Shown piece after piece: positions 5,484-19,792 of a DNA stretch of 33,235 bases. Under the pieces are notes generated by a model. It saw only the letters and a list, made by a program, of their open reading frames with translations. It searched no databases and had not been told where the DNA came from. The stretch is taken from assembly GCA_013331965.1 (NCBI GenBank), contig DUFL01000051.1:1-33235 (forward strand), given 5' to 3'. The stretch comes from Candidatus Woesearchaeota archaeon. Its GTDB lineage: Archaea; Nanobdellota; Nanobdellia; Woesearchaeales; UBA10107. The position numbers were made by a program, and so were the translations under genes. Within the stretch, counting starts at the first letter, position 1. Every line of letters starts with the position of its first letter.

Positions 5484-5882
5484 ATGATATTTTTAGATGC
5501 AAATATTTTCTTGGCACACGATAATATTAACGATGTACACCACGAAAAAGCATTGCTTCTTTGGAAACGAATCGAGTCGGGCGAATTTGAACAATATTTC
5601 ACTTCTGATTATGTTATTAATGAAGTCGTAGGAGTCACATTACGAAAGTTCGGAAAAGACAGGGCTATAGCTATCGGAAAGCAGATATTAAATGCAATGA
5701 ATATATTAAATATAGACGAGCATATGCTGATTGAAGCTTGGGGGATATTTACAGAAACAAAGCTCGCTTTGAACTTAGTCGATTGCACAAATATTATCGC
5801 TGCCAGAATAGCCGATGCAAAATTTATAGCAACTTTTGATAAAGAGTTCAAGAAATCAGAAGGAATCAGTATTATCGATTAA
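5484..5882 (+). CDS. vapC: PIN-domain ribonuclease toxin VapC
   Basis: MIFLDANIFL (first acidic residue), TSDYVINEV, VDCTNIIAA and ATFDKEF give a typical PIN acidic quartet layout in 132 aa. Confidence 0.85.
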   Translation: MIFLDANIFLAHDNINDVHHEKALLLWKRIESGEFEQYFTSDYVINEVVGVTLRKFGKDRAIAIGKQILNAMNILNIDEHMLIEAWGIFTETKLALNLVDCTNIIAARIADAKFIATFDKEFKKSEGISIID

Positions 5883-8442: not shown

Positions 8443-9564
8443 ATGTCAGGATTATCTAAGTCAGCAATAGCATTGGCATCTTTGCTAGCTACGGCCGGAT
8501 GTGCAGGAAATAAAGTTAAACCAAATGATATTCAACCAGCAGTTCAATCTGCTCCAAAAATTAAGGTTCTTCCTTTGTCAGTCAGAACAGCAGCAGAACA
8601 TAAACATTTCGAAGATATTACAAAAAACTATTGTATTGTTTATACGGATTCAAATGGTGCACATAAAATAGAGTTTTCTTCAACAACAACCGCAGAAGGG
8701 AATCTGAGAATAGCAGAAAATTATTCAGACTTAACGCAGCTGGTTAGTGAATCATATCCGGGGCAATTAAATCCCCCAAAAGTTTTTGCAAGTAAACCTA
8801 GTGAATATTTTTTTACAGATGTAGATAACAAAAATATTTACAAGTATTCTGCATCAAAAGATCAAAAAGAAATAGGTTTAGACCTTATCGCATCAAATAT
8901 TGACCTGGGATGTTATGATTTTGTTGGGGATACTATTATTTTTATAACTAAGGATGGTAAATCCATTAAAAAATTAAATAGCGATGGTTCGCATGAAACC
9001 GAGCTTTTTGCCGGAGAGACAGTTACTTTTAACGATTTAGTAATTTCTCCAAGCCAAAAAAGAGTAATTTTTACAAAATCACCGGTCAGCAGAGGAGGAT
9101 CATTGTCGATTTTCAATAATGCAGCATATTATGTTATGGATTTAGAAGGAGACAACAATTCCAAGCCCATGAAACTTGGATTTGAAGGATTATTCGGGGA
9201 ATATGATCAATCATCCGGGCCGCAAAATGTTTCGTTCTTGATGAAAACAGACAACGGAAGATCTTCTTTAGAAAATAAGATATTATTCACATATAGATAC
9301 CCGACTGCAAAAGGAAATAATCTTTATTCTGTTGAACTCGGTGAATTCTTGAGAGATTGCGGTTGCATCCCTCTTAAAAAAGAAACATTAAAAAGGATTA
9401 CTTCGGATGATGCACCGATAACTTACGCAAAACAAGTAAAAGATAATAGCGATTATATTATCTATGTGCAGGATGGAAAACTTTTCTTGGCGAAAGATAA
9501 CGATAGATTTCTTTTGTTAGAACAAAGATTTAATGGTTCAGAACCTCTGCTCGTAAAAAAATAA
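8443..9564 (+). CDS. secreted lipoprotein-like beta-propeller (TolB/PD40-like) protein
   Basis: MSGLSKSAIALASLLATAGCAGN is a signal peptide with a lipobox-like AGC. Repeated DG-x-x-(I/L)-x-F type strands (KDGKSIKKLNSDGSHETELF, SPSQKRVIFT). Start moved from TTG 8431 to ATG 8443 (leaderless spacing from TATA). Confidence 0.7.
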   Translation: MSGLSKSAIALASLLATAGCAGNKVKPNDIQPAVQSAPKIKVLPLSVRTAAEHKHFEDITKNYCIVYTDSNGAHKIEFSSTTTAEGNLRIAENYSDLTQLVSESYPGQLNPPKVFASKPSEYFFTDVDNKNIYKYSASKDQKEIGLDLIASNIDLGCYDFVGDTIIFITKDGKSIKKLNSDGSHETELFAGETVTFNDLVISPSQKRVIFTKSPVSRGGSLSIFNNAAYYVMDLEGDNNSKPMKLGFEGLFGEYDQSSGPQNVSFLMKTDNGRSSLENKILFTYRYPTAKGNNLYSVELGEFLRDCGCIPLKKETLKRITSDDAPITYAKQVKDNSDYIIYVQDGKLFLAKDNDRFLLLEQRFNGSEPLLVKK

Positions 9565-9578
9565 ATTAAAAATTAATT

Positions 9579-10223
9579 TTATTGATAATAACCTGCTTTC
9601 TTTAATAATTCCATATACTTCTGCCGTTTAACTGCCAAATTCTTTTGAATTCTATTAGATTTTTCTCCAAATGATTTTGCTTCAGCAGGGTGATTTCTCA
9701 GATATGCAAATGCCGCAATAGTTAACTGTTTATCTATGCTTTCAAACATATAGGGCCTAATCTTACCGGCTTTTGCAAGAGTTATTATCTCATTTTCAAG
9801 GTCAGAACCAATTGTTTCTTTTTCCATTAAATCGCTCCATGTCTTCTCTGCTAGTTGTTCAACGAGTGCACTTTCTTCAGCGTTCATCTGAATATTGTCC
9901 GAATTCACTTCTTTCTCTTTGTTTTCTCTTTCGTATTTAGAAATAATTGCACTAAGCTCTTTTTTACCGTAGTTATAGCATACATTTAATGCAGGATAAG
10001 CAAACATTAACGCCCCTGTTGCCATAAAAACCCTAAATCCGTTCTTTTCAATTTTTGTCCTTCTTGGTTCTTTTTGGATGTGCTTATCTAATCCTCTTAG
10101 ATATGATTGCGCTCCGTCGTATACATTTCTTGAAATATCAACTGCAACATTATGCGTCTTAGAATTTTTAATGACATCTAAAATTTCAGACAGTTTGGTT
10201 TTCAATTTTAGAAATTTTATCAT
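9579..10223 (-). CDS. hypothetical protein, 214 aa (last gene of the cluster)
   Basis: ATGA overlap with the upstream gene. One central hydrophobic segment (FRVFMATGALMFAYPALNV). Helical K/E-rich remainder. Confidence 0.7.
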   Translation of the reverse strand: MIKFLKLKTKLSEILDVIKNSKTHNVAVDISRNVYDGAQSYLRGLDKHIQKEPRRTKIEKNGFRVFMATGALMFAYPALNVCYNYGKKELSAIISKYERENKEKEVNSDNIQMNAEESALVEQLAEKTWSDLMEKETIGSDLENEIITLAKAGKIRPYMFESIDKQLTIAAFAYLRNHPAEAKSFGEKSNRIQKNLAVKRQKYMELLKKAGYYQ

Positions 10224-10774
10224 TTTTGATTTGCCATATTCTGAAGAAGACCTTCCAATGCTTTTTCTGATCCAGATTTTTTTGCCTTTGAAACCGGAGC
10301 AGAACTTTGTTCTTTCTTGTCTTTTTTTGCTTCTCCATACAGTGCTTTATTTAACTCATCTTCAACTCTTCCTGTTTCAGATCTGCTATATGACAAATTT
10401 TCTAATCCACTTTTTAATTTACGTGTCCTTACTCCTTTTGGTGTAAAATAATCTTTTGCAAGACTTCTTCCCTGTTCTGTTTCATCCTTTACAGCTTCTC
10501 TTACTCCTCTGGCTGCACCAAGAAGACCTCTTGCAACTCCTCCAACGATATTTTTAGTTAAGTCTTCAATATATTTTTCATCTTCTGCAATTTTATCGGC
10601 AGTACCTCCTCCCTTTGCTTTCTTCTTATCTTTCTCTGTCTCTTGCTGAGCTATTACTTCCTGTTGCTTTTCTTTTTTTGTTTTTTTCGCGTAACAATAA
10701 TTCGGAAACATAGCCGCGGATATCCCTGCAGCTAGAAAAACGGCATATGTTGTTTTCTTAAATAAATTATACAT
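10220..10774 (-). CDS. secreted K/E-rich low-complexity protein, 184 aa
   Basis: Signal peptide TYAVFLAAGISAAMFPNYCYA. ATG lies 1 nt after the upstream stop, with a GGAGAAAC SD. Confidence 0.7.
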   Translation of the reverse strand: MYNLFKKTTYAVFLAAGISAAMFPNYCYAKKTKKEKQQEVIAQQETEKDKKKAKGGGTADKIAEDEKYIEDLTKNIVGGVARGLLGAARGVREAVKDETEQGRSLAKDYFTPKGVRTRKLKSGLENLSYSRSETGRVEDELNKALYGEAKKDKKEQSSAPVSKAKKSGSEKALEGLLQNMANQK

Positions 10775-10775
10775 T

Positions 10776-11261
10776 TTAGTTTCTCCTTTCTAATCTTTTT
10801 AAAGCTATTTCCAATTCAGATTCTTTCTTTTTAATATCATCAAGGTAGATTTTGGCCTGTTCTAGATATTCTCTTCTTTTAATATCGTCTTTGGTGTTTT
10901 TAGCTTTATCTAATAAAATTTCAGCAGAAGAGCGTTCTCCTGAAATAATTACCGGATAATGTTCAGCCATATGAACCCACATTTTTGTTGTGACCCATTC
11001 TTTAGCACTAAAATAAACAGGATTATTTGATGGTCCAAATTTAATAACTTCAACGAACAAATTTTCAGCCTTTTTATAATTGTAGTCCGAAACCGCTAAA
11101 ACTCCTTTTTCATAGTTAATTTTAGGTAAATTTGAAAAAATATGACCTTCTGCAGGTCTTGAAGGATAATCAGTTTTAGTTAGTATTCTATCCAATAATC
11201 CTGCGTTTGCAGGAGCCGCTACAAACAACCATAATGCTAAATTCGGAAGTAGGTTTTTCAT
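10776..11261 (-). CDS. secreted TPR-like domain protein (paralog of the C-terminal domain of the 341-aa protein)
   Basis: MKNLLPNLALWLFVAAPANA signal peptide. Shares AEHYPxIxSxERSxAE, DIKRR and LEQAxxYxxDxKKKES blocks with 13443-14468. Start moved to the ATG at 11261, about 25 nt downstream of the TATA at 11281-11290. Confidence 0.75.
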   Translation of the reverse strand: MKNLLPNLALWLFVAAPANAGLLDRILTKTDYPSRPAEGHIFSNLPKINYEKGVLAVSDYNYKKAENLFVEVIKFGPSNNPVYFSAKEWVTTKMWVHMAEHYPVIISGERSSAEILLDKAKNTKDDIKRREYLEQAKIYLDDIKKKESELEIALKRLERRN

Positions 11262-11280
11262 GGGTCTACTCATATTCACT

Positions 11281-11320
11281 TATATATAAACCTTTCGTTT
11301 ATTTACTACTCATAAGTGAC
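11281..11320 (-). promoter_or_regulatory. shared promoter cassette copy 4 (internal promoter of the cluster)
   Basis: Minus strand reads gtcacttatgagtagtaaataaacgaaaggtttatata. Confidence 0.6.
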
Positions 11321-13099
11321 TTATTTTACGTATTTCTCCCCTTGATAAGCATTTTCTATTGCCTCAGCAATTCTCTGCCTTAATCTTGTTAGTTTACGGA
11401 TTATTTCATTATATTCAGATTTTGTTATTACCTGCGGAAGATTTGCCTCATTAATTAATTCTTGAATCTTCCTTGCTAATTCTTCGTATTCAACTGCATC
11501 ACTAAACCAATCATACAGCTCAGATTTGCCTCCTTTCTCTTTAACCATCTCAAATACTGCTTCATTTTGCAATGATTGTTTTGCAAACAATGAAATGTGG
11601 GCAGGCATTATTCTTTTCTTAAGCTCAAACGGACTTATTATCTCATCTCCGCTAGGATATCCCTGAGACTTGACGGGTAATGGCCATTTTGCTTTTTCTG
11701 CTGAAAATAATCTTCTTCTCTGCGCAAAATTGCGAACTTCGATCATGCTTTTTATCGCTTCTTTTTGTTTTTCACTTATTTTTTGTTCTATTCCTCCAAG
11801 CAATTCGTTCATTTCTTTTACTTTTTTAGCCAGTTCTTTTCCTTCTTTGGAGTTTTCATCTACTTTTTCTACACATATCTTTATTATTTCTAAATCTTCA
11901 ATCAATGTTTTTCCTCTAACTCTGCCCGTACTTAAATCAGACAGCGCGGATTTTAATCGTCCTATTAATTTTTCATCAAGTTTTAGCAATCCTTTTATTT
12001 TTCTTATATTATTCCCGAGTTCATTTATATGCGGATAGTAATTTGTATTAATCAGTTCAACTTCTATTCTTAAATTATTTTTAATTTTATCCACTTCATC
12101 TTGAATATCTTTTGCAGCATAACTTATGGTTCTTCCTGCAAACATTTTCTTTAAAGCTTCTAACTTTTCAGTGTCTTTTCTATATGATTTAATGAGAGAT
12201 GTTCCAAATCCTGATTCAAATTCTGAAAGAAAAGCCAGATATTTTTTAACATCTTCTTTCACAACTTCGTCTGTGTTTTCGAGTATTTTAAATTCTGTAT
12301 TCAACCACACCTTCAAGAGATCTCTTGTTGCCTGCTCATTTAATTTTGCTGGTTCTATTTTTCCATTTATCTTTAGCATCTCGATTAGTTCGTTAAATTT
12401 CTGTTGATTTTGATTTACTGCAGTTTCCCTATCCCCGAAATGTTTTTCGATAAATTCCTCTATCTTTTTCTTCTCCATAAGTTTTTTTGGATTAAATTTA
12501 TTTAGAGTTTCAAGCAAGTCTTCTTTTGTTTTTTTAGCAATCCATCCAAATAATCCGGATCCAAAAAATGATTTCCAGTTTCTTGCATCAGGGTTTATAC
12601 TCATTCTGAATAGATTAAATAGCAATAAAAATAAAAGAACATAAATCGGATATGCTACATACCAAGGAAACCCGGATGAAGCGTAAAGTATTGGTTTTTT
12701 ATGAACATTAATATCAAACAAACTTGCAGGTATTGCACTTTCTTTCTTTTTTAATATCTCTTGTATTGCTTCATCATTTAAATTGTATTTTTTAATGGCA
12801 TTTTTTAATGAGGCTCTGACCTCTTTATCTAATTTAACAATCTCCGGGAAATTTGAAGGATTTAGTTCTTTCAATTTGGTGGTTTGCGATTTCATTAATT
12901 TTGCCACAGCTAAAGTAAGTGCGGCGGTATATTCTCCATCGATGAAATTCGGATCACTCATAACGCCGGCAAAAGGTTTTTCTATATTCGCTATGTAGGC
13001 TTCTGCTTTTTTATATTCCGGAGTGTCTTTCGCGGCAAAAGCCAGACTTATATTAAAGAATAAGACAATAATGAATATTGAGGCAATTTTTCTATTCAT
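11321..13099 (-). CDS. signal-peptide / single-TM protein with about 400-aa cytoplasmic coiled coil, 592 aa
   Basis: Signal peptide IASIFIIVLFFNISLAFA. TM WYVAYPIYVLLFLLLFNLF followed by RMSIN. Long E/K heptad region. ATGA overlap with the upstream gene. Confidence 0.8.
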   Translation of the reverse strand: MNRKIASIFIIVLFFNISLAFAAKDTPEYKKAEAYIANIEKPFAGVMSDPNFIDGEYTAALTLAVAKLMKSQTTKLKELNPSNFPEIVKLDKEVRASLKNAIKKYNLNDEAIQEILKKKESAIPASLFDINVHKKPILYASSGFPWYVAYPIYVLLFLLLFNLFRMSINPDARNWKSFFGSGLFGWIAKKTKEDLLETLNKFNPKKLMEKKKIEEFIEKHFGDRETAVNQNQQKFNELIEMLKINGKIEPAKLNEQATRDLLKVWLNTEFKILENTDEVVKEDVKKYLAFLSEFESGFGTSLIKSYRKDTEKLEALKKMFAGRTISYAAKDIQDEVDKIKNNLRIEVELINTNYYPHINELGNNIRKIKGLLKLDEKLIGRLKSALSDLSTGRVRGKTLIEDLEIIKICVEKVDENSKEGKELAKKVKEMNELLGGIEQKISEKQKEAIKSMIEVRNFAQRRRLFSAEKAKWPLPVKSQGYPSGDEIISPFELKKRIMPAHISLFAKQSLQNEAVFEMVKEKGGKSELYDWFSDAVEYEELARKIQELINEANLPQVITKSEYNEIIRKLTRLRQRIAEAIENAYQGEKYVK

Positions 13100-13446
13100 A
13101 TTCTCGTTGCCTCCATTTTTTTAAGCATATCTTCCAAAATTTTTGCTGAACTTGAACCGGATATTTTCCCAGTTTTAATGTCTCTTAATTTATCCAACTC
13201 AATTTGGAGCAGTTCTGCTTCTTTCCTTATTTTTCTAGCTTCTGAAAGAGACTTCGAATATGGGGTTGTCTGTAATTCTCCTTGTTTTCCTGAGAATATT
13301 TTTCCAAGACTTGAAATTAAATTTGAATTTTGCATGATATCATCTATGAAAGTTTTTACGCTTTCTGGAGATGCATCATTGGGAAAAGCTTGGGCTAATA
13401 AAATCATCACTAAAGTCATTAGTACTGAAATTATTATTTTTCTCAT
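13096..13446 (-). CDS. small secreted protein, 116 aa
   Basis: Signal peptide IIISVLMTLVMILLAQA. ATGA overlaps at both ends. Confidence 0.75.
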   Translation of the reverse strand: MRKIIISVLMTLVMILLAQAFPNDASPESVKTFIDDIMQNSNLISSLGKIFSGKQGELQTTPYSKSLSEARKIRKEAELLQIELDKLRDIKTGKISGSSSAKILEDMLKKMEATRI

Positions 13447-14468
13447 TGCACTTCCCTCAGTTTAAATTGCTCCGTCAGGAAACTTTCCTTCTTTTTAACA
13501 TCGTTTATATACGCCTGTGCCTGCTCAAGAAGCTCTATCCTTTTTGATCTTCTCTTAATATCAGGGTCATCTGCAGCGATTTCCCTTACCTGATCAATCA
13601 AATGTTCTGCAGCAGAACGCTCCGCTGACATTATTGCTGGATAATGCTCTGCAATTAATATGAACAATTTATCACCTTGATCTCTGCTTATGTATTTAGT
13701 TGCAGTTGCGAAATAAGGGTTTCCGGATGCTCCAAAACGGATTATTTTTTCAAAATAAGTTTTTGCTTTGTCATACTCGTAATTTTGTATGGCTTCGATA
13801 GCTAATTTATAGTTTGTTTCCGGATTGTTTGTTTCTATTGTTCCGCCGCCTGCTACTAATCTAGATGAGAATTCAGATTTTCGTTCTGTATCAAATACCC
13901 CTCCTAACAAACTTGGAGATTTGCCTTCGGCTAAATTAAATGTATTAACAATCAGCCAACTAAGCATAATTGCAGCCAGTAACGCAGGCAAAAATCCTAT
14001 GTACGGCTTATTCTCTCTATTTTTTGGCATTTGGATCAAAAATATAAAAAGAGGAACCATCAGTATCGTAAGTATGTTTATTCCATATGGAACTATTTTT
14101 CCAAACGAAAAGCCAGACGAGAGGATTCCTATTGTCAAAGCAATTGCCACTGCAAATGAAAGAAGATTTCTTTGTTTCTTTTCCATGTCTTTCCACATAT
14201 TGTTTATAGACATCCTTACAACTATGAAGAATATTACAAAGAAAATTATTCCATCTACAATTTTTCTTTGTGCATCATATTCTGGATTGAGTTCTTTTCC
14301 GACTGTCGTATAAGGCAGAAGCACAGTATTTTTTACTAAATTTCCTATCGCCTCCGATAATGCGCCGGATCGCAGGTTATCCCCAAATGCAGAAACAGGA
14401 TTTTGAGCTTCTGCTGAATATATCAAACAAAGAACAAGCAAAAATCCTAATATTGGTGCTTTATTCAT
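13443..14468 (-). CDS. signal-peptide, multi-TM protein with C-terminal TPR-like domain, 341 aa
   Basis: Signal peptide ILGFLLVLCLIYSAEA. About 4 TM helices (one followed by RMSIN). C-terminal domain paralogous to 10776-11261. Confidence 0.8.
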   Translation of the reverse strand: MNKAPILGFLLVLCLIYSAEAQNPVSAFGDNLRSGALSEAIGNLVKNTVLLPYTTVGKELNPEYDAQRKIVDGIIFFVIFFIVVRMSINNMWKDMEKKQRNLLSFAVAIALTIGILSSGFSFGKIVPYGINILTILMVPLFIFLIQMPKNRENKPYIGFLPALLAAIMLSWLIVNTFNLAEGKSPSLLGGVFDTERKSEFSSRLVAGGGTIETNNPETNYKLAIEAIQNYEYDKAKTYFEKIIRFGASGNPYFATATKYISRDQGDKLFILIAEHYPAIMSAERSAAEHLIDQVREIAADDPDIKRRSKRIELLEQAQAYINDVKKKESFLTEQFKLREVQ

Positions 14469-15226
14469 GCAAATTTCTCCTTCATTTTCTCTTCTTTTTT
14501 CTGTCTAAAAAATGATAATAGGGATTTTTTAATTTCCTGTATCATGCTTGTTTCTTTCTGGAAATCTTCTTTAATATTTTTTGCTTTTTGTTTTAATACT
14601 TCTATTGCTTCATTAAATCTTACTGCACGTTCCTGCAGTTTTTTGTTCTCAAGTATTCTTCCAAGGCATTTTGTTGCTTCCTTTTCAAGAACGGATAGAT
14701 TGTTTAAAGGTATTCCGTTTTTTGCGGAGTTCTCAATTGCAGTTTTTAGCGCAAAATCATATTCATCGTTCAAAATCATATTCTCCTTTTGTTTTTCATA
14801 AATTTTCCTAAGTTCTTCTATGATTTCAATAAGTCTATGCACTATTGCGTTCGCAATTCCTCTTATCATTTCATCTTCTTTCAGTATTTTTCTCATCTTT
14901 TGTTCGTATTCTTTTATCTCGATTTTAAGTTCCTTCATCCTTGCGTTTATGACATTTACAATGAGTTTTTCATTGTTAATTCCAGGATCTTCAAGCTTTC
15001 TCGCAAGAACAGAATCTACGTCTGCAGTTTTTCTTACCAGTTCACTTTTCTCTTTTCCCTCATAAATGAAATGACCTTTCTTTACTTCTTTCCTTTCACG
15101 TTTTTCCAACTCAAGACGTTTTCTTAATGTTTCCACTGCTGAAATAATTTTGTTGTTGTTTATGATTATGTCTGCTATTTTGAACGGATCATTCCAGCTC
15201 TTTTCCCAATTCAGCTCATTGTCCAA
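14465..15226 (-). CDS. soluble coiled-coil protein, 253 aa
   Basis: No hydrophobic segments; E/K/I/L heptad-rich. Likely TTG start preceded by GGAGGAG at about 8 nt. Overlaps the upstream gene by 11 nt. Confidence 0.7.
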   Translation of the reverse strand: MDNELNWEKSWNDPFKIADIIINNNKIISAVETLRKRLELEKRERKEVKKGHFIYEGKEKSELVRKTADVDSVLARKLEDPGINNEKLIVNVINARMKELKIEIKEYEQKMRKILKEDEMIRGIANAIVHRLIEIIEELRKIYEKQKENMILNDEYDFALKTAIENSAKNGIPLNNLSVLEKEATKCLGRILENKKLQERAVRFNEAIEVLKQKAKNIKEDFQKETSMIQEIKKSLLSFFRQKKEEKMKEKFA

Positions 15227-16427
15227 ATTCTTTCTCCTCCTTCCATTTCTTGCTCAGTTCTGCTATTGATTTTTTGATTGCTTTTTCTACATCTAACCGC
15301 TCTCCAAACTCTTCTTCCAATTCTTCAATTAATACTCTTTTGTCATCTTTGTGAGCGTCAAGCGTTTCAATTATCTTTTCTGAAATATAGTGCACATCTC
15401 CTCCGCTTTTTAATTGTCTTATTAACGAAATCAAATTTCCACGATAGTTTGCCAGTTTGTCATATTTCTCCCAAATATTTTGGACTGTTCTTTTTTCTTT
15501 GATTGTTGTAAATCTCGCCAATACAGGAACAAGGTTTTCCTCGTATTTTCTGCCAGTTTTCCATATTATTTTTTTGAAGAACTTTTTTATTCTTCCGCCA
15601 TATTTCCAGTCAAATATCAGTATAATTATCGCTATGATTATTTTAGATATTACTGAAAATATTTGCCAATCCTCTATTCCAAATAATAGTTTAATATACG
15701 CCTCCTCCCCCCTATCGAATGTAATGATGCTGGGATTTGTTGAACTAATTGAGAAAATCCTTTCAAGTGTTGAATTAATAAATATTTTAATCGCATTTAT
15801 AATATATGTGATTCCAGAACCAACTAATTTTGTTATCGCGTCCCTTACAAATGGCACATAGCTCAAAGCAATTATTCCAAGGACCCATTTAAGATTGGAC
15901 CACATAATTGATGCAACGTGTTTTCCACCTATAAGTAATCCAGCACCAACCATCGTAACAATTAATATTCCGGTTAAATATGGTTTAAGTATCAGCACAG
16001 GATTTATCGGGAAAATTTCTTCTAAATACAAATAATGCAACTCAATTGCCGCCAATATGAATAAAATAAGAATCAAGTTCTTTAATGTAAACATTCCTTT
16101 CATCCAGTCAAAGATAGATTTTAGTTCATTAATGATTTTGTCCCATGAACCCTCGATTAATGCAATCCTCAACCCTTCATCTTTTATTGCCCTCCATGTA
16201 AAATACGAGATAAAGAATATCATGAATAATTGATACATGGATCCTTTATCTAAATCTACACCGAAAATATAGTCGTAAATTCTCCATGGCCAATTCTTAA
16301 GAAGCTTTCCTATTTTTGAAACTGCCAGGGATAATATTGTTGATAATACCCATGATGTTCCTAGAATCATAATTACTAAAAAACCGTACCCTTTCAAACT
16401 CATTCCTCCTTTTTCGCCTTCAATCAT
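15216..16427 (-). CDS. polytopic membrane protein with C-terminal coiled coil, 403 aa
   Basis: About 6-8 hydrophobic helices, then a K/E-rich helical tail. TAATG stop/start overlap with the upstream gene. Confidence 0.8.
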   Translation of the reverse strand: MIEGEKGGMSLKGYGFLVIMILGTSWVLSTILSLAVSKIGKLLKNWPWRIYDYIFGVDLDKGSMYQLFMIFFISYFTWRAIKDEGLRIALIEGSWDKIINELKSIFDWMKGMFTLKNLILILFILAAIELHYLYLEEIFPINPVLILKPYLTGILIVTMVGAGLLIGGKHVASIMWSNLKWVLGIIALSYVPFVRDAITKLVGSGITYIINAIKIFINSTLERIFSISSTNPSIITFDRGEEAYIKLLFGIEDWQIFSVISKIIIAIIILIFDWKYGGRIKKFFKKIIWKTGRKYEENLVPVLARFTTIKEKRTVQNIWEKYDKLANYRGNLISLIRQLKSGGDVHYISEKIIETLDAHKDDKRVLIEELEEEFGERLDVEKAIKKSIAELSKKWKEEKEFGQ

Positions 16428-18103
16428 TATGCGGGTACCTCTTCAGGAATACCATACTCTTGTTTTAATATCTCGGCGAATCCTGCCAGCATAAACACTT
16501 TTCTTTTGGTTTTCATTGCGTTATCTATTGAAAGAATATCTATTTTTAATTTGGCTTGCAGCTCCTCCTCATACCTTGCTGCTTCAGCTAATTTTACAAT
16601 CAGTTTGTTGAAATTTGGTACTATTTTTGTTCTGATTAAGCTTGCTCGTTCCATTCCATCCGGAGTTTCGGATGCTCTAATCAATGCGGTTCTCAATTCA
16701 GTCAGTGCTGAATTTATTTCGATTGTTTCCCTGTTATAGTTCATTATTAAATCATTTGTCTTATCAGTTTCTTCATCTTCTTTTTTAAGCTGTTCAATTA
16801 GATTCGGCGACATTTCTTCAATTGAGATAAGGGTTTTTGTGAATGCAGTTATAATCTCTTTTCTTTTTTGTCCCAATTCTCTTATTCTTTTTCTCACTGC
16901 ATAATTAGCTGTTTTTATTCCTCTTTTTGCTGCTTTCGCAAATACTATTTTCCAGCCAGCATCATCTTTTAATTTAAACTCATCAAATTTTGCAGCAAAA
17001 AGCGGCTGATTCCAATTTTTCCCTAAATGGATTTCCCATTTTTTTCTTCCTTCTTCAGTATCTTTTATCAAATCTTCATATATTCCAAGAAGATATTTCA
17101 TTTCTTTTCCCTCCTGTGTCATTTCAAAATTGTCTCTGAATAGTTTAATTTGTTTTCTTCTTGCTTCTTTTTCATTCTCTATGGCTTTAAGCTTGTCATT
17201 CAATGTAGTTGTTTTTCTAATCGGCTGCAGCAAAATTTGATCATGTATGGGGATTGCAGATGCTATTCTCGCTAAAAATGGCTTTACTACCATTTCATTT
17301 TGCGGCTGCGATATTGCTGCTGCTTCTGCATTTTGTACTGCGAATCTTGCTTGCCCAGCTTGTGCTAAAATCTGTTTTGTTCTTTCTCTTTCTATTCTTA
17401 TTTGTGTGACTATCTTTCTTCTTTCCATCTTGTCTTGTCTGTCCATTTCCTCTTCTTTCTCTGCTTTTTCTTTTTTCTTTTTCCACTCTTCTTTTTTGTG
17501 TGCCACAATTGTCGGGTATATGAATATTACGGCGGCTATTAATCCATGCACTACAAATATGCTGGCAAAAAATGGATCTAAACCAGAGGTTCTCAATGTC
17601 TGCAGTATTGATTCGGGCAGTATGTTCGTTCTTGAAAAAAGGCTGTTAAAAGGCGCAGCGATAATACTTATTACAAAATATGTTCCAGTAAACAGCTCGA
17701 ATTTTTCTTTTTCCCCTGCACTAGTTTTATTTGTGATAGCATAATAAATATATACAATCCATGCAAGAAACCACATGCTTTTGAAAGGATTTGAAGTATT
17801 TAGCACAAAATTGGAGATTACGGGGATTGTAACTATGCCGACCACAATTCCGCTTATGTTAGCAATTGATCCTTTAAACCAATCTCCTCCGAATCTTCTT
17901 AATAATAATATAATAATTAAAACTGTAAGCACCCAAGTACCGAAAAACGCCAATAATTTTCCTTGTGAACTTACTTCGCTTAATGGAGCAATAATATTCT
18001 TGATACTTTCAACATTAGTTTCTATTGAATATGCCGAAATAATACTAACTAGGTTAAGAACTATGGAAATGAGCATTAAATACAACATTTTATTTTTTCT
18101 CAA
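16427..18103 (-). CDS. polytopic membrane protein with about 350-aa C-terminal coiled coil, 558 aa
   Basis: N-terminal signal/TM plus about 5 further TM helices, then a KKEEWKKKKEKAEKEEE coiled coil. Start is either TTG 18103 (TTGA overlap with the RHH gene) or ATG 18088. Confidence 0.8.
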   Translation of the reverse strand: MRKNKMLYLMLISIVLNLVSIISAYSIETNVESIKNIIAPLSEVSSQGKLLAFFGTWVLTVLIIILLLRRFGGDWFKGSIANISGIVVGIVTIPVISNFVLNTSNPFKSMWFLAWIVYIYYAITNKTSAGEKEKFELFTGTYFVISIIAAPFNSLFSRTNILPESILQTLRTSGLDPFFASIFVVHGLIAAVIFIYPTIVAHKKEEWKKKKEKAEKEEEMDRQDKMERRKIVTQIRIERERTKQILAQAGQARFAVQNAEAAAISQPQNEMVVKPFLARIASAIPIHDQILLQPIRKTTTLNDKLKAIENEKEARRKQIKLFRDNFEMTQEGKEMKYLLGIYEDLIKDTEEGRKKWEIHLGKNWNQPLFAAKFDEFKLKDDAGWKIVFAKAAKRGIKTANYAVRKRIRELGQKRKEIITAFTKTLISIEEMSPNLIEQLKKEDEETDKTNDLIMNYNRETIEINSALTELRTALIRASETPDGMERASLIRTKIVPNFNKLIVKLAEAARYEEELQAKLKIDILSIDNAMKTKRKVFMLAGFAEILKQEYGIPEEVPA

Positions 18104-18243
18104 TTCTTCACCTTCTTTTTTAGTTCTCTACTTAGCAAATCTTCTATCATTGACGAGAGGTTAGTGTTTTCATCAATTGCCAATTTCTTGGCATCTTTCC
18201 AGATATCTACGTCTAGTTTTATTGTCCTAGTTATCCTTGACAT
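18100..18243 (-). CDS. 47-aa ribbon-helix-helix (CopG/Arc-like) DNA-binding protein, first gene of the cluster
   Basis: Not in the ORF track. MSRITRTIKLDVDIWKDAKKLAIDENTNLSSMIEDLLSRELKKKVKN has the beta-strand/helix/helix RHH pattern. tttataaa on the minus strand lies about 25 nt upstream. Confidence 0.65.
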   Translation of the reverse strand: MSRITRTIKLDVDIWKDAKKLAIDENTNLSSMIEDLLSRELKKKVKN

Positions 18244-18351
18244 TAACCTTTAAAATAGAACAGGCCTTTATAAATATTTGCATATTTAAATACATAATTC
18301 TATATTTATATATTTATAGATTTAAATAAGTACGGAGAAAATCTTCAAGAA

Positions 18352-19086
18352 TTATCTAGCAACTGCCGCTTCGAGCCCACTCATTGCAGAATCGACACTG
18401 TCGATAGGATTTCTTAGATACAATGTGTTCCAGTAATATTTGTTTACGGCTTCTTTTGTAACTTCTATCCCTTCCTTAACTCTGTCCACAACATTAGAAA
18501 CACTGCTTGTTGCGGCTTCTTTTGCTCCGCTGATTATATTGGCTAATTTTCCGAATGTTTCTGGTGCAAGATTCTTGAAAGCCAAACCTCCGCCGATAGC
18601 GCATCCCAACATTTTTCCATATTTATTTGAATTTCTTCCTTTGAAAAAGTAATTAAATATTTTCTCAGGAGCCATAGCTATATTTTTTACAGTATCAAAC
18701 GGATGCATAACAACTTCAGTAGTTTTTCTGAAAACACTGCCAATAGTATCGACAGGATGTCTAATTAATTTATAGGCTAATCCAAAACTTCCCGTTACAA
18801 AATTGTAACCCATATTCATTGCTATATACGTCGTAGAACCAACAATGGTCGTATAGACTAATCCCATTATTGGCGATAAAAAAACAATAGGTAAAACAGA
18901 TCCAGCTGAATAAGATGCGGCACCGTATTTCAATGTATCGCCAACAAAGCCATCAACTTTATTCATAACATTTACAACATTTTCTTTCGTTTCTTGAAGC
19001 TTTTGCTCTAACGATTTAGAAGGTACACTTGTTCTCTGTTCAAGCCCTCCTGCGGGCATAGGAATAGTTGCTGCAGCTGCTGTCAT
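18352..19086 (-). CDS. membrane protein, unknown function, 244 aa
   Basis: Long ORF with central hydrophobic helices (VLPIVFLSPIMGLVYTTIVGSTTYIAM). gctttaaata TATA upstream. Confidence 0.7.
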   Translation of the reverse strand: MTAAAATIPMPAGGLEQRTSVPSKSLEQKLQETKENVVNVMNKVDGFVGDTLKYGAASYSAGSVLPIVFLSPIMGLVYTTIVGSTTYIAMNMGYNFVTGSFGLAYKLIRHPVDTIGSVFRKTTEVVMHPFDTVKNIAMAPEKIFNYFFKGRNSNKYGKMLGCAIGGGLAFKNLAPETFGKLANIISGAKEAATSSVSNVVDRVKEGIEVTKEAVNKYYWNTLYLRNPIDSVDSAMSGLEAAVAR

Positions 19087-19164: not shown

Positions 19165-19425
19165 TTATTCAACTTTAGCTTCTTTTCCCAAACACTGCCC
19201 AGGCAGACCTTTCTCAAACAATGTCCTTACTGCGCCATTCCTGCCGTGTACCGCAGTTATTCTGCCAGAAATAGCGTTTCCTTTGGTGTTGGCCCAGACT
19301 ATCTTTTTGCCTATCAATTTCTCAGCAGATTCTTTCTTAGAAACGCCCTCGACATGGACAATAGCCTGATTGCTGGCTTCCTGCTTCCTTCTTGAACCTC
19401 TAAAGTTAACGATTACTGCTTTCAT
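19165..19425 (-). CDS. rpl35ae: 50S ribosomal protein L35Ae (eL33)
   Basis: MKAVIVNFRGSRRKQ...AEKLIGKKIVW...GRITAVHGRNGAVRTLFEKGLPGQCLG is colinear with archaeal L35Ae. Start moved to the Met at 19425; TATA 19449-19456 lies about 25 nt upstream. Confidence 0.93.
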   Translation of the reverse strand: MKAVIVNFRGSRRKQEASNQAIVHVEGVSKKESAEKLIGKKIVWANTKGNAISGRITAVHGRNGAVRTLFEKGLPGQCLGKEAKVE

Positions 19426-19470
19426 AGAAAATTGAACCTTTGGGACATTTATAAAAGTTGCTTTTTCAGG

Positions 19471-19633
19471 GGCTCTGTCCCAAATCTTACGATTTGTCGT
19501 TAGCACCGACTCACGATGTAATTCTAACTTATCACAAACCGCTGAAGCCCCGTAGGGGGCGACCCCCTCAGCTTTGTTTATTATGATTTATCCATCGCTC
19601 GTAATTGGTGCTAACGACTTTCGGGACAGAGCC
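19471..19633 (+). ncRNA. GC-rich three-stem hairpin element, copy C (with extra outer stem P0)
   Basis: P0 ggctctgtccc(19471-19481)/gggacagagcc(19623-19633). P1 gttagcacc(19499-19507)/ggtgctaac(19607-19615). Loops gactca and ctcgtaatt. P2 cgatg(19514-19518)/catcg(19593-19597). P3 gctga/tcagc. Apical cccc-gta-gggg-gcga-ccccc. Confidence 0.6.
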
Positions 19634-19644
19634 TTTTTCAGGCA

Positions 19645-19792
19645 TTGTCAACTCTGTTGTGCTGTCGGCTCGGCATGTAATGATGCAGCAATCAGAAGCC
19701 GCTGAAGTCCCGTAGGGAGCGTCCCCTTCAGCTTATTTTCATATGCAACTATTGATGCCTCGCGAAATGACAACACAACAGACTCATGACAA
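19645..19792 (+). ncRNA. GC-rich three-stem hairpin element, copy D
   Basis: Outer ttgtca(19645-19650)/tgacaa(19787-19792). P1 ctgttgtgctgtc(19654-19666)/gacaacacaacag(19769-19781). Loops ggctc and tcgcgaaat. P2 ggcat(19672-19676)/atgcc(19755-19759). P3 gctgaag/cttcagc. Apical tccc-gta-ggga-gcg-tcccc. Confidence 0.6.

Follow-up and report, generated by a model that had tools for sequence, protein, structure and literature searches.

A conserved, rapidly diverging ten-gene operon of Woesearchaeota and Nanoarchaeota that may encode a cytoplasmic-membrane complex

The window analysed here, the whole 33,235-nucleotide stretch of contig DUFL01000051.1, carries on its minus strand (18243-9579) ten co-directional genes that we read, with a probability of about one half, as a two-promoter chromosomal operon restricted to Woesearchaeota/Nanoarchaeota and encoding subunits of a single heteromeric cytoplasmic-membrane complex, most likely a trans-membrane scaffold. 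The proteins diverge very fast, yet their gene order is shared by about ten related lineages, and a lineage-specific envelope complex is therefore probable. The host is a DPANN archaeon, as originally predicted: source names of the products read "Candidatus Woesearchaeota" or "Nanoarchaeota archaeon". The operon proteins are assignable to no known system, in line with the original prediction that recognisable family domains are absent: the nine non-regulator products gave no family match in Pfam, NCBIfam, PHROG, PADLOC or PDB, and profile and structure searches placed no member in such a system.

ORF calling reproduced the ten genes, their sizes (47, 558, 403, 253, 341, 116, 592, 161, 184 and 214 aa in order; named g47 to g214 by length) and the overlapping junctions described earlier. 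Spacings are -4, -1, -11, -4, -4, -4, +41, +1 and -4 nt, the +41 nt between g592 and g161 becoming +59 nt when counted to the ATG at 11261, and Shine-Dalgarno-like GGAGG motifs accompany the stop/start overlaps. Public gene calls on identical contigs match these ORFs except at the starts of g558 (549 or 553 aa in those calls) and g161 (161 aa, 11261-10776, or 167 aa, 11279-10776). A K-rich N-terminus common to orthologues supports the TTG start of g558, and the shorter g161 is favoured by a TATA box conserved some 26 nt ahead of ATG 11261. The overlaps behind the proposed translational coupling are thus real but not unusual as such, since overlaps also occur at about half of the window's other same-strand junctions, as befits a compact genome; coupling alone is unremarkable, and the conserved order in other genomes carries more weight.

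Eleven further contigs, from assemblies of Woesearchaeota/Nanoarchaeota, carry the same gene order, with orthology across loci confirmed by iterated HMMs. The order reads 558-403-253-341-(116)-592-161 in loci L007, L009, L010, L011, L012, L013, L014/L015, L016 and L019, and L008 is a 2.5-kb fragment with a g341 homologue. About ten lineages retain the order and, roughly, the gene sizes. Identity of the structural proteins is only 22-40% even where the genes flanking the cluster are 79-89% identical between the same genomes, and it stays near 30% at any species distance. Their similarity is also mosaic: g403, g253, g184, g214 and the upstream neighbour u244 are nearer L009, and g341, g116, g592, g161 and the downstream neighbour d373 nearer L007, the locus whose genome is the closer of the two by housekeeping genes. 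Where dS could be estimated, dN/dS was 0.18-0.53, so that purifying selection is detectable despite the fast change.

Such divergence and mosaicism would also suit a variable surface-protein island, a tentative reading that we consider doubtful, in which co-transcribed and loosely constrained envelope and coiled-coil proteins, with no obligate common complex, diversify fast or are swapped by recombination between lineages, with viruses or partner cells exerting the pressure. The two TPR-like paralogues of L007 show gene conversion, which points the same way, as does the finding that in Nanoarchaeota populations no class of protein evolves faster than hypothetical surface proteins (PMC6142677). 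So too does the reach of the fast-evolving island beyond the operon, the neighbours u244, d373 and w316 evolving as fast as its structural genes. Against this stand the retention of order and sizes noted above, one fusion of two genes and the paralogous modules described below. Moreover, divergence is uniform over outer, membrane and cytoplasmic parts, whereas surface-only selection predicts that cytoplasmic members should not diverge as fast as exposed ones; weak constraint would fit this uniformity, and so would subunits that co-evolve. Nor is there hypervariability within populations, since strains from many different samples share 99.9% identity over the cluster.

The neighbours u244 and d373 are conserved, and their membership in the system is uncertain. 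The first (18352-19086, minus strand) has its own transcript and encodes a membrane-associated protein with orthologues in L007, L009, L010 and L011 (37, 50, 35 and 27% identity). The second (8443-9564, plus strand) is convergent with the operon and has a lipoprotein-like signal (…LLATAGC), orthologues in L007, L009 and L011 (41, 33 and 27%) and no Pfam or PDB match.

The first gene, g47 (18100-18243, minus strand), encodes a 47-aa ribbon-helix-helix (RHH) protein of Arc/CopG type, as had been proposed, with matches to DUF6364 (E 7e-6, 26.8 bits against a cut-off of 27.3), RHH_1 (E 0.026), CcdA (E 0.035) and a PHROG Arc-like repressor (E 6e-4); its sole PDB match is a CopG-family RHH protein (E 0.69). 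It is 87, 80, 69 and 68% identical to its counterparts in L007, L019, L009 and L011, and judged from sequence it is the probable regulator of the operon. Upstream on the same strand lies a conserved 27-nt block (18266-18292, TATTTAAATATGCAAATATTTATAAAG), flanked by AT-rich inverted and direct repeats, which holds two palindromes, ATATTTAAATAT and AAATATTT, as well as a TATA box, TTTATAAA, whose centre is about 27 nt ahead of the g47 ATG. Across the window, L007, L009 and L011, 25 of the 27 positions are invariant, despite synonymous sites near saturation between these genomes. This block is a putative operator for g47. The internal promoter predicted between g592 and g161 is likewise supported by conservation: a control region at 11283-11320 (minus strand), kept in the same four loci, comprises a near-palindrome directly 3' of the g592 stop, GTCACTTATGAGTAG, and a BRE/TATA element, CGAAAGGTTTATATA, which lies some 26 nt ahead of ATG 11261 and presumably acts as promoter.

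If the cluster were a remnant of a mobile element such as a virus or plasmid, or a module domesticated from one, this would explain its RHH first gene, which has Arc-like PHROG matches, its orphan membrane proteins and its rapid evolution. In addition, strain contigs lose collinearity 1.4 kb upstream (about 19470-19633) beside a MITE-like element. Such an origin is nevertheless very unlikely: integrase, capsid, replication and att features were not found, searches of IMG/VR, GenBank phages, PLSDB plasmids and BFVD structures gave no match, and the GC content of the cluster equals that of its flanks. The cluster also keeps a constant slot between L35Ae and PAC2, even in genomes whose TctA proteins are only 55-66% identical.

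The most conserved structural member is g341 (13443-14468, minus strand; 56, 45 and 33% identity to L007, L009 and L011), with a signal peptide, four membrane helices and, both predicted to lie outside, the conserved motif (W/P)YTT-x-G-x-(E/D)LNP-x-Y-x-x-QR ahead of the helices and a TPR-like domain at the C-terminus. Its AF2 model (pLDDT 83) shows a four-helix membrane domain and a helical-repeat domain, without significant Foldseek match in PDB or BFVD. TPR_2 matches occur in 4 of 13 members of the family, g341 matches BamD/YfiO (3qky) at E 0.008, and a full HMMER search over 1.84 billion representatives returned 35 hits only, about 13 representatives being of the short, g161 type. Indeed, g161 (10776-11261, minus strand) is a secreted paralogue of the g341 C-terminal domain (BLASTP 41% over 135 aa, E 3e-29; hhalign 99.9%). 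The membrane module of g341 probably recurs in g558 (16427-18103, minus strand), where profile comparison matched residues 46-132 to it (hhalign 86-88%, E 4e-6) at an identity of only 9%; other membrane-protein pairs, including the unrelated 4-TM protein w137, scored at most 3.6% by hhalign.

In g558, a signal/anchor and five membrane helices, with invariant residues Y142, APF-x-S (150-154) and H186, precede a predicted cytoplasmic helical domain of about 350 aa that consists of a stalk helix, a small bundle and a long helical hairpin. Orthologues occur in L007, L009, L010, L011, L013 and L016. The AF2 model has a pLDDT of 67 overall, 70-88 in the cytoplasmic part and a low-confidence 40-57 in the membrane part; its helices 177-265, 396-479 and 483-549 form an 89-residue helix and an 84/67-residue hairpin. 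These long helices are consistent with the large cytoplasmic arms that had been proposed, and segment counting and the positive-inside rule suggest that the helical regions of g558, g403 and g592 face the cytoplasm.

Signal or membrane segments had been claimed for eight of the nine non-regulator products, a count that can stand although three cases are weak. Hydropathy finds them strong in five (558, 403, 341, 116 and 592 aa), moderate in those of 161, 184 and 214 aa (15-aa Kyte-Doolittle 1.6-1.7), and absent from g253. The least conserved member, g403 (15216-16427, minus strand), appears to be a polytopic membrane protein with a cytoplasmic helical tail of about 125 aa; orthologues are detectable by sequence in L007 and L009 only, and positional equivalents of 291-436 aa in other loci align to it unconvincingly. 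The helical, K/E-rich (30%) g253 (14465-15226, minus strand) is soluble and presumed cytoplasmic because it has no hydrophobic segment; its family occupies the same position in L007, L009, L010, L011, L012, L013, L014 (fragment) and L016, and its PDB matches are generic coiled coils. The small g116 (13096-13446, minus strand) has a signal peptide or N-terminal anchor and then a helical region. A signal peptide also begins g592 (11321-13099, minus strand), followed, in the predicted topology, by a helical outer domain of about 120 aa, a membrane helix (143-170) and a cytoplasmic helical domain of about 420 aa. The identical g592 protein is present in 49 assembly blocks, orthologues occur in L007, L009, L011, L012, L014 and L010 (partial), and no PDB or Pfam relatives were found. 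Its GRVRGKT is not a P-loop, orthologues reading GAIKGTD, GHISGTR, GKIKGDQ and GKVHPQE, in agreement with the claimed absence of a canonical Walker A motif. In L011 the g592 orthologue (725 aa) carries g116 as an N-terminal fusion, the only direct hint of one assembly. The remaining genes are g184 (10220-10774, minus strand), with a signal-peptide-like N-terminus, a K/E-rich, probably extended region and orthologues in L007 and L009, and the last, g214 (9579-10223, minus strand), in which a strongly basic stretch leads into a single, moderately hydrophobic segment (about 63-86). Conservation of g214 is poor: it is detectable by sequence in L009 only, with positional equivalents of 172-223 aa in other loci.

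Long helical arms could also belong to a membrane-shaping or division/vesicle apparatus, in which the arms of g558, g592 and g253 would form BAR/F-BAR, eisosome or ESCRT-III/PspA-type coats that bend or stabilise membrane during septation, budding or the formation of nanotubes or bridges, with the 4-TM proteins as anchors. Foldseek related the g558 model, with probabilities up to 0.96, to F-BAR (2v0o, 2efl) and BAR domains (2elb, 9jih, 9uhd), eisosome Lsp1 (3plt, 8qb8) and bacterial dynamin-pair stalks (5oxf). The g253 profile weakly matches designed t-SNARE and viral fusion heptad repeats, and the helical domains are net positive in charge. We regard this as unlikely, however: all these g558 matches have E of at least 0.01 and TM-scores mostly below 0.3 (maximum 0.43, normalised to target), as any long helical bundle would give, the Pfam BAR, Snf7, PspA and dynamin families did not match, and no ATPase or GTPase occurs in the window's version of the cluster. 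The topology of g592 (signal/anchor, outer helical domain, membrane helix, cytoplasmic bundle) resembles that of a chemoreceptor (MCP) or sensor kinase, and g558 weakly matches methyl-accepting chemotaxis proteins by profile (2ch7/3ja6, E 0.002) and by model (9a69/9a65). A sensory array in which g592 and g558 pass an outside signal to cytoplasmic partners is nonetheless quite improbable, as these matches fall in generic coiled-coil segments, an output domain is lacking, and none of the members or neighbours has a HAMP, MCPsignal, HisKA, HATPase or Che domain.

For the preferred reading of one complex, the physical assembly, topology, RHH regulation and role that we propose would be as follows. 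g47 would bind the palindromic block, which overlaps its own promoter's TATA box, and thereby determine how much of the entire unit is made. At the core would be g341 and g558, sharing the four-helix membrane module, with g341 presenting its conserved outer motif and TPR-like domain outside, and g558 adding a fifth helix and extending its arm of about 350 residues into the cytoplasm. Outer partners of the core may be secreted g161, the small helical g116 and g184, and g592 through its outer domain; inner partners may be the soluble coiled-coil g253 and the helical arms that g592 and g403 contribute. As a scaffold, the complex would link a helical lattice in the cytoplasm to a structure outside, be it S-layer, surface filament or partner-cell contact, and a role as envelope scaffold or in cell contact is what we infer. 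Conserved order, the fusion, the g341/g161 and g341/g558 paralogies, the overlaps, the conserved RHH protein and promoters, the g341 and g558 models, purifying selection and core chromosomal housekeeping genes around the cluster argue for a single complex. Against it, conserved order could largely reflect general collinearity, since the flanking genes TctA, L35Ae and PAC2 are collinear across loci too; g403, g184 and g214 are barely traceable by sequence past the closest relatives; the g558 membrane model is of low confidence and its match to g341 has 9% identity; and the window's version has no energy source (ATPase). The originally predicted envelope assembly is thus partly supported, in that the unit and its two promoters are conserved and no known family fits. 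Compared with the cluster of the window, which is headed by an RHH gene and has no ATPase, the analogous clusters of more distant relatives occupy the same L35Ae–PAC2 slot and begin with an ATPase_2/wHTH gene.

The original prediction of a ten-gene, minus-strand cluster with overlapping stop and start codons was borne out, as ORF sizes and junctions were both reproduced. Ten ORFs within 9579-18243 encode products of 47, 558, 403, 253, 341, 116, 592, 161, 184 and 214 aa (hereafter g47 to g214), with g161 reaching 167 aa if begun at an upstream GTG. Their junction spacings in cluster order are -4, -1, -11, -4, -4, -4, +41, +1 and -4 nt, and several starts are preceded by a GGAGG-like motif. Gene calls on public contigs carrying identical genes match, except for the starts of g558 (called as 549 or 553 aa) and g161. 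Overlapped genes are frequent elsewhere in this compact genome, e.g. in a second minus-strand operon at 8296-5892 encoding a K/E-rich helical protein of 316 aa (w316), membrane proteins of 54 and 47 aa, a well-conserved four-helix membrane protein of 137 aa (w137) and the proteasome-assembly chaperone PAC2. Translational coupling is therefore by itself weak evidence for a functional unit. Between PAC2 and the gene for RNA polymerase subunit L, a PIN-domain protein (5484-5882, plus strand) lies beside an upstream 78-aa ORF, in what looks like a toxin-antitoxin pair.

The neighbours of the cluster are core archaeal genes (ribosomal L35Ae, S19e, L31e, LonB, Cbf5/TruB, PAC2, UPP synthase, UDG and TctA), and the source names attached to its products are "Candidatus Woesearchaeota archaeon" or "Nanoarchaeota archaeon". 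For L35Ae (19165-19506, minus strand), the mechanical ORF of 113 aa starts at a GTG; gene callers and orthologues take an ATG at 19425, giving 86 aa. Between L35Ae and a 301-aa gene (o301), at 19461-19790, are two tandem units of about 160 nt with terminal inverted repeats; a GC-rich hairpin lies in the 55-nt core common to both. Copies of the 10-bp direct repeat CTTTTTCAGG border the first unit (19471-19632), which one strain contig (L003) lacks precisely; in two others (L001 and L004) collinearity ends at 19633. These units resemble a small structured RNA or a MITE; they gave no Rfam match at E <=1 and no tRNA, and neither tRNAs nor Rfam families were found in the window as a whole.

Word-indexed homologue searches returned almost nothing but self matches. 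The family formed by g341 and g161 was recovered solely by a full HMMER search, in which its profile, run against 1.84 billion representatives, retrieved no more than 35 proteins; long and short forms account for about a dozen each, and a few larger proteins have only the membrane module in common. On every contig recovered for the long form (L007, L009, L010, L011, L012, L013, L014/L015, L016 and L019, plus the short fragment L008) the genes stand in the same order, i.e. ~560, ~290-440 and ~230-265 aa, a g341-like gene, ~115-135 aa or a fused gene, ~530-725 aa, and a g161-like gene. The prospect that this order would be absent from any other genome, on which the original prediction would have fallen, is thus not the case. 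Iterated HMMs confirmed orthology for g558, g253, g341, g592 and g161, and more weakly for g116, g184 and u244, the upstream neighbour (18352-19086, minus strand). The TctA, L35Ae, w137 and PAC2 flanks are likewise collinear in the relatives, so that part of the conservation of order reflects general synteny. Scans of GTDB species genomes gave no match, probably because the pattern-based method failed or because the MAGs are not species representatives, and constitute no evidence of absence.

The sequences themselves diverge strongly. Relative to L007, the flanking genes TctA, o267, o301 and L35Ae retain 79-89% amino acid identity, g47 87% and g341 56%; the remaining cluster proteins, together with u244 and the convergent downstream neighbour d373 (8443-9564, plus strand), retain 22-41%. 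Cluster identities are also near 30% against L009 and L011, for which housekeeping proteins drop to 70-75% and 60-75%, respectively. Outer, membrane and cytoplasmic segments diverge uniformly. Similarity is mosaic, with u244, g403, g253, g184 and g214 nearer to L009, and g341, g116, g592, g161 and d373 nearer to L007. This pattern could reflect either weakly constrained sequences that saturate quickly or block exchange between lineages, a choice that three taxa cannot decide. Where dS could be estimated, dN/dS was 0.18-0.53 for cluster genes and 0.05-0.15 for the flanks; the cluster genes are under purifying selection, relaxed relative to their surroundings. An identical g592 protein is present in 49 assembly blocks, and over the cluster the window shows 99.9% identity to six contigs, each of different sample origin. 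Samples in which the organism is abundant include JGI 3300009285, ERZ27254805 and ERZ28563774.

Control DNA has behaved differently from the structural genes. In four genomes that are near saturation at synonymous sites, a block of 27 nt at 18292-18266 (TATTTAAATATGCAAATATTTATAAAG) hardly varies; it holds palindromes as well as a TTTATAAA box, placed about 27 nt ahead of the g47 ATG, and overlaps the TATA box of the g47 promoter. Downstream, a near-palindrome (11306-11320) after the g592 stop is followed by a BRE/TATA element (CGAAAGNTTTATATA) about 26 nt upstream of the ATG at 11261, and both are conserved. Conserved control DNA at both sites makes two transcription units likely, with short leaders or none. 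That regulator and promoter are frozen while the structural genes are near-saturated suggests either that cassettes are exchanged or that the sequences are very weakly constrained.

Ribbon-helix-helix (RHH) domains comprise about 45 aa with an N-terminal beta-strand and two helices, are found by RHH profile models, and belong to proteins that bind repeated or palindromic operator DNA, usually at their own promoter. The g47 protein, 68-87% identical across the four genomes, shows consistent matches, each below threshold, to DUF6364 (26.8 bits, E 7e-6; cut-off 27.3), RHH_1 (E 0.026), CcdA (E 0.035) and Arc-like PHROGs (E 6e-4 to 0.08); its sole PDB match is a CopG-family RHH protein (E 0.69). 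It resembles the Arc/MetJ autoregulators (CopG, Arc, CcdA-N) in its small size, its first position in the operon and the conserved palindromic promoter DNA that it adjoins, and presumably autoregulates. It differs from them in that its matches individually fall just under curated thresholds, DNA binding being putative, and in that the genes downstream differ from toxin-antitoxin or plasmid copy-control cargo.

One reading of such rapid divergence is a co-transcribed, variable surface island whose products form no obligate complex. Fast change has been reported for hypothetical surface proteins of Nanoarchaeota (PMC6142677), which the cluster products resemble in their DPANN hosts, lack of functional annotation, membrane or signal segments and elevated non-synonymous change. 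The cluster differs from these proteins in its fixed multi-gene order and dedicated regulator, in cytoplasmic members that evolve equally fast, and in showing no within-population variation. We consider a surface island possible, with the odds against it; if such loosely constrained envelope proteins were indeed at hand, the finding would be typical DPANN "dark matter" of modest meaning.

The prediction of signal peptides or membrane helices in eight of the nine non-regulator products holds firmly for g558, g403, g341, g116 and g592, whose hydropathy shows strong segments, and less so for g161, g184 and g214, whose segments are moderate; g253 has none. With a signal peptide and four helices, g341 would carry its C-terminal domain outside, a placement that fits the signal peptide of g161. 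Six hydrophobic segments followed by a strongly basic stretch would keep an arm of ~350 aa of g558 inside, a signal peptide and one membrane helix would leave ~120 aa of g592 outside and ~420 aa inside, and the tail of g403, coming after a basic cluster, would also lie inside. From these individual topologies, together with that of g253, we infer that the cluster products occupy both faces of the membrane.

Several members are linked by homology. The C-terminal domain of g341 is paralogous to g161 (41% identity, E 3e-29; hhalign probability 99.9%), and residues 46-132 of g558 align with the membrane module of g341 at an hhalign probability of 86-88% (E about 4e-6, 9% identity). All other pairs of membrane proteins, the unrelated 4-TM protein w137 included, scored 3.6% or less. 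A four-helix membrane module is, on these alignments, probably common to g558 and g341. The idea that w137 is a minimal version of this module was rejected, the two being unrelated, as was that of a g341-g592 fusion in P0028, a distant relative of 977 aa whose C-terminal region has no match to the g592 profile. Comparisons of g403, g253, g592, g116, g184, u244 and d373 against each other for further internal paralogy were all negative. In L011, g116 and g592 form a single gene of 725 aa, a Rosetta-stone hint that their products act together at the outer face. In L007, the g341 C-domain (8964-9113) and its short paralogue (11724-11873) share 81% nucleotide identity over 150 nt, with 20 identical residues (YYFDAVKWLSKKDGDKLFKH); the same pair in the window reaches 75% over 60 nt only. 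The higher identity in L007 indicates gene conversion between the two TPR-like paralogues within that genome.

Known families are scarcely represented. Single-sequence scans of the nine non-regulator proteins against Pfam, PHROGs, NCBIfam and PADLOC gave nothing significant, and no Pfam model recurred when each orthologue of the g558, g592 and g253 families was scanned. TPRs, i.e. helix-turn-helix repeats of 34 residues that occur in tandem and are picked up by TPR profiles, were the only models to recur in the g341 family: TPR_2 matches four of 13 members (best E 2e-4; only a weak 0.12 for the window protein), and TPR_16, TPR_8 and TPR_1 match two to three members. Matches to STT3, EpsG and Wzy_C were discarded as single-member noise. 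The best PDB match of the domain common to g341 and g161, a weak one, is the lipoprotein BamD/YfiO (3qky, E 0.008); PDB sequence and profile searches with this domain, g592, g558, g253, g47, u244 and d373 yielded coiled-coil noise and weak BamD and CopG matches only. The near-Walker A motif GRVRGKT that had been pointed out in g592 was abandoned, as orthologues do not conserve it.

An AlphaFold model of g341 (26-sequence alignment, pLDDT 83) begins with a signal helix and a short beta-hairpin at a conserved outer motif; four helices in the membrane follow, then a C-domain of helical repeats in which the paired helices 216-228/232-245 precede long ones. Searched with Foldseek, this model had no significant match in BFVD or in PDB, where TPR proteins and BamD ranked first (best E 0.2). 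For g558, modelled from six sequences (pLDDT 67), the membrane part is of poor quality; the cytoplasmic part (pLDDT 70-88) is made up of a helix of 89 residues, a small bundle and a hairpin with arms of 84 and 67 residues. The PDB matches of the g558 model are generic long-helix proteins (MCPs, BAR/F-BAR, Lsp1, dynamin stalks) at E 0.01 or more, with TM-scores mostly <0.3 and at most 0.43 normalised to the target. In none of these three Foldseek searches did a match reach E <=0.001. A full-text literature search found no publication describing the cluster.

Two more distant loci, L017 and L018, of which L018 bears the name "Nanoarchaeota archaeon", fill the same chromosomal slot, between L35Ae and w137-PAC2, with a cluster of large orphan proteins, two of which in each case carry a g341-type membrane module. 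The w137/PAC2 pair is kept even there. In L017, alone among the distant relatives, one g341-module protein (13036-15162) has an OmpA-like domain at E 8e-6, narrowly short of the Pfam cut-off, and a papain-family Peptidase_C1 protein follows at 15862-17235. Together these domains suggest that some versions may carry cell-wall-binding or cell-wall-processing outer domains. Both clusters are headed by a gene for an ATPase_2 (PF01637)/AAA_16 protein with a C-terminal wHTH, which overlaps the next gene and takes the position held by u244 and the RHH gene in the window lineage. In L016, g558, g253 and g341 have clear orthologues, and the cluster again begins with this ATPase, whose orthologues (L016 677-1807, L017 5743-6945 and L018 2005-3105) share 31-36% mutual identity; a search for a homologue in the window found none. 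The first gene across these clusters is always that of a DNA-binding protein or of an ATPase with wHTH. With equivalent ATPase-headed clusters in the slot, the RHH-headed operon appears as one variant of a wider, slot-bound cluster family.

As the best-supported reading we propose, at a probability of about 0.5, that the cluster encodes a regulated, clade-restricted heteromeric membrane complex, likely an envelope scaffold or contact structure. Such a complex would rest on two copies of the new 4-TM module and carry TPR-like and small helical components on its outer side and long helical arms on its inner side. A bolder version, distinctly doubtful at present, is an unrecognised envelope nanomachine of Woesearchaeota and Nanoarchaeota, fixed in its slot, based on the new four-helix module, headed by RHH or ATPase_2/wHTH genes and with exposed and cytoplasmic parts re-assorted between lineages, which could serve these episymbionts in recognition, attachment or bridging of partner cells. 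The organism itself is uncultivated. DPANN archaea such as Woesearchaeota are abundant, and orphan membrane operons of this sort are not rare in their genomes. To our knowledge, almost nothing has been established on the construction of DPANN envelopes or on the contacts that these cells make with partners, and no genes have been assigned to contact machinery on the DPANN side. This conserved operon, under its own regulation and with nine products that lack characterised relatives and are predicted to span the membrane with domains on either side, is a concrete candidate for partner-contact machinery. It also introduces a new four-helix membrane module and an outer TPR-like domain, both traceable in related genomes.

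Comparison with known systems bears on the remaining readings. A provirus would be expected to bring genes for an integrase or recombinase, for a capsid or for replication, att repeats or a tRNA as target, a contrast in composition and a patchy distribution at the locus. The cluster has no integrase, recombinase, capsid or replication genes, att repeats or tRNA, shows no compositional contrast (GC 0.31-0.35 against 0.33-0.41 in the flanks), and sits in the same slot in all relatives. Searches of IMG/VR, phages, plasmids and BFVD gave no matches to it and lend no support to a mobile-element relic, a highly improbable reading. Defence systems in PADLOC-DB call for at least one signature protein matching a PADLOC model; the best matches (JetC, DruC and PDC-M17B, E 0.004-0.03) fall in coiled-coil segments and none is significant. 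Type IV pili and archaella are built from a PilB/FlaI-type ATPase, a PilC/FlaJ platform, pilins with class III signal peptides and a prepilin peptidase; no T2SSE, T2SSF, archaellin or pilin family matched the cluster at E <=1, and it has no conserved Walker A motif. Type IV secretion and conjugation, Ced/Ted-like systems included, use a VirB4/TraC or HerA/FtsK-type ATPase with VirB6-like and VirB2-like membrane proteins. The cluster contains no ATPase, and the only traces, TrbI in a K/E-rich stretch (E 0.0055) and TrbC/VirB2 in two relatives (E 0.005-0.009), are sub-threshold and not recurrent.

A sensory array would draw on g592, which like methyl-accepting chemotaxis proteins has an outer helical domain, a membrane helix and a long cytoplasmic helical bundle, and matches them weakly in sequence and structure, but at E-values that are not significant once coiled-coil bias is allowed for. 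Chemotaxis receptors carry HAMP and MCPsignal domains with a conserved hairpin tip and have che genes nearby; Pfam scans of all members and orthologues gave neither domain, and the neighbours are housekeeping genes with no che gene among them. We rate a sensory array a slim prospect. A membrane-shaping, division or vesicle apparatus would find its counterpart in BAR/F-BAR and eisosome (Lsp1) scaffolds, which the g558 model resembles in its long bundles of antiparallel helices, its net basic charge and its attachment to the membrane. BAR/F-BAR domains are dimeric, curved three-helix bundles recognised by BAR/FCH profiles or by structural matches of TM >0.5. In the Pfam scan FCH gave E 0.94 and no match was significant, and with the g558 model these scaffolds gave TM-scores mostly <0.3 (maximum 0.43, none >0.5) at E 0.06 or more, from a monomer model that cannot show dimer curvature. 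They are also eukaryotic families that no sequence similarity ties to the cluster. A shaping apparatus is rather improbable.

A similar parts list is that of Tol-Pal with CpoB (YbgF), which combines polytopic membrane proteins, a protein that crosses the membrane once and has a very long K/E-rich helical domain, the exported coiled-coil-plus-TPR protein CpoB and an exported lipoprotein. Proton-driven stators of the Tol-Pal, MotAB and ExbBD type pair a MotA_ExbB-family channel with a TolR/ExbD/MotB partner bearing a conserved membrane Asp. Family scans of the window gave no MotA_ExbB, TolR/ExbD, TolA, TolB/PD40 or Pal/OmpA match, and MotB (6ysl) appeared at E 0.054 only, in a membrane-plus-charged stretch. 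The long helices of the cluster are moreover predicted to be cytoplasmic rather than periplasmic, and its host is an archaeon without evidence of an outer membrane. What the two share is composition: CpoB resembles g161 and the g341 C-domain, the best PDB match of this TPR-like domain is a lipoprotein, and the cluster, too, combines polytopic proteins and long K/E-rich helices with an exported lipoprotein as a neighbour. The resemblance is an analogy of composition only. The cluster is real, conserved and not assignable to any known kind of system.
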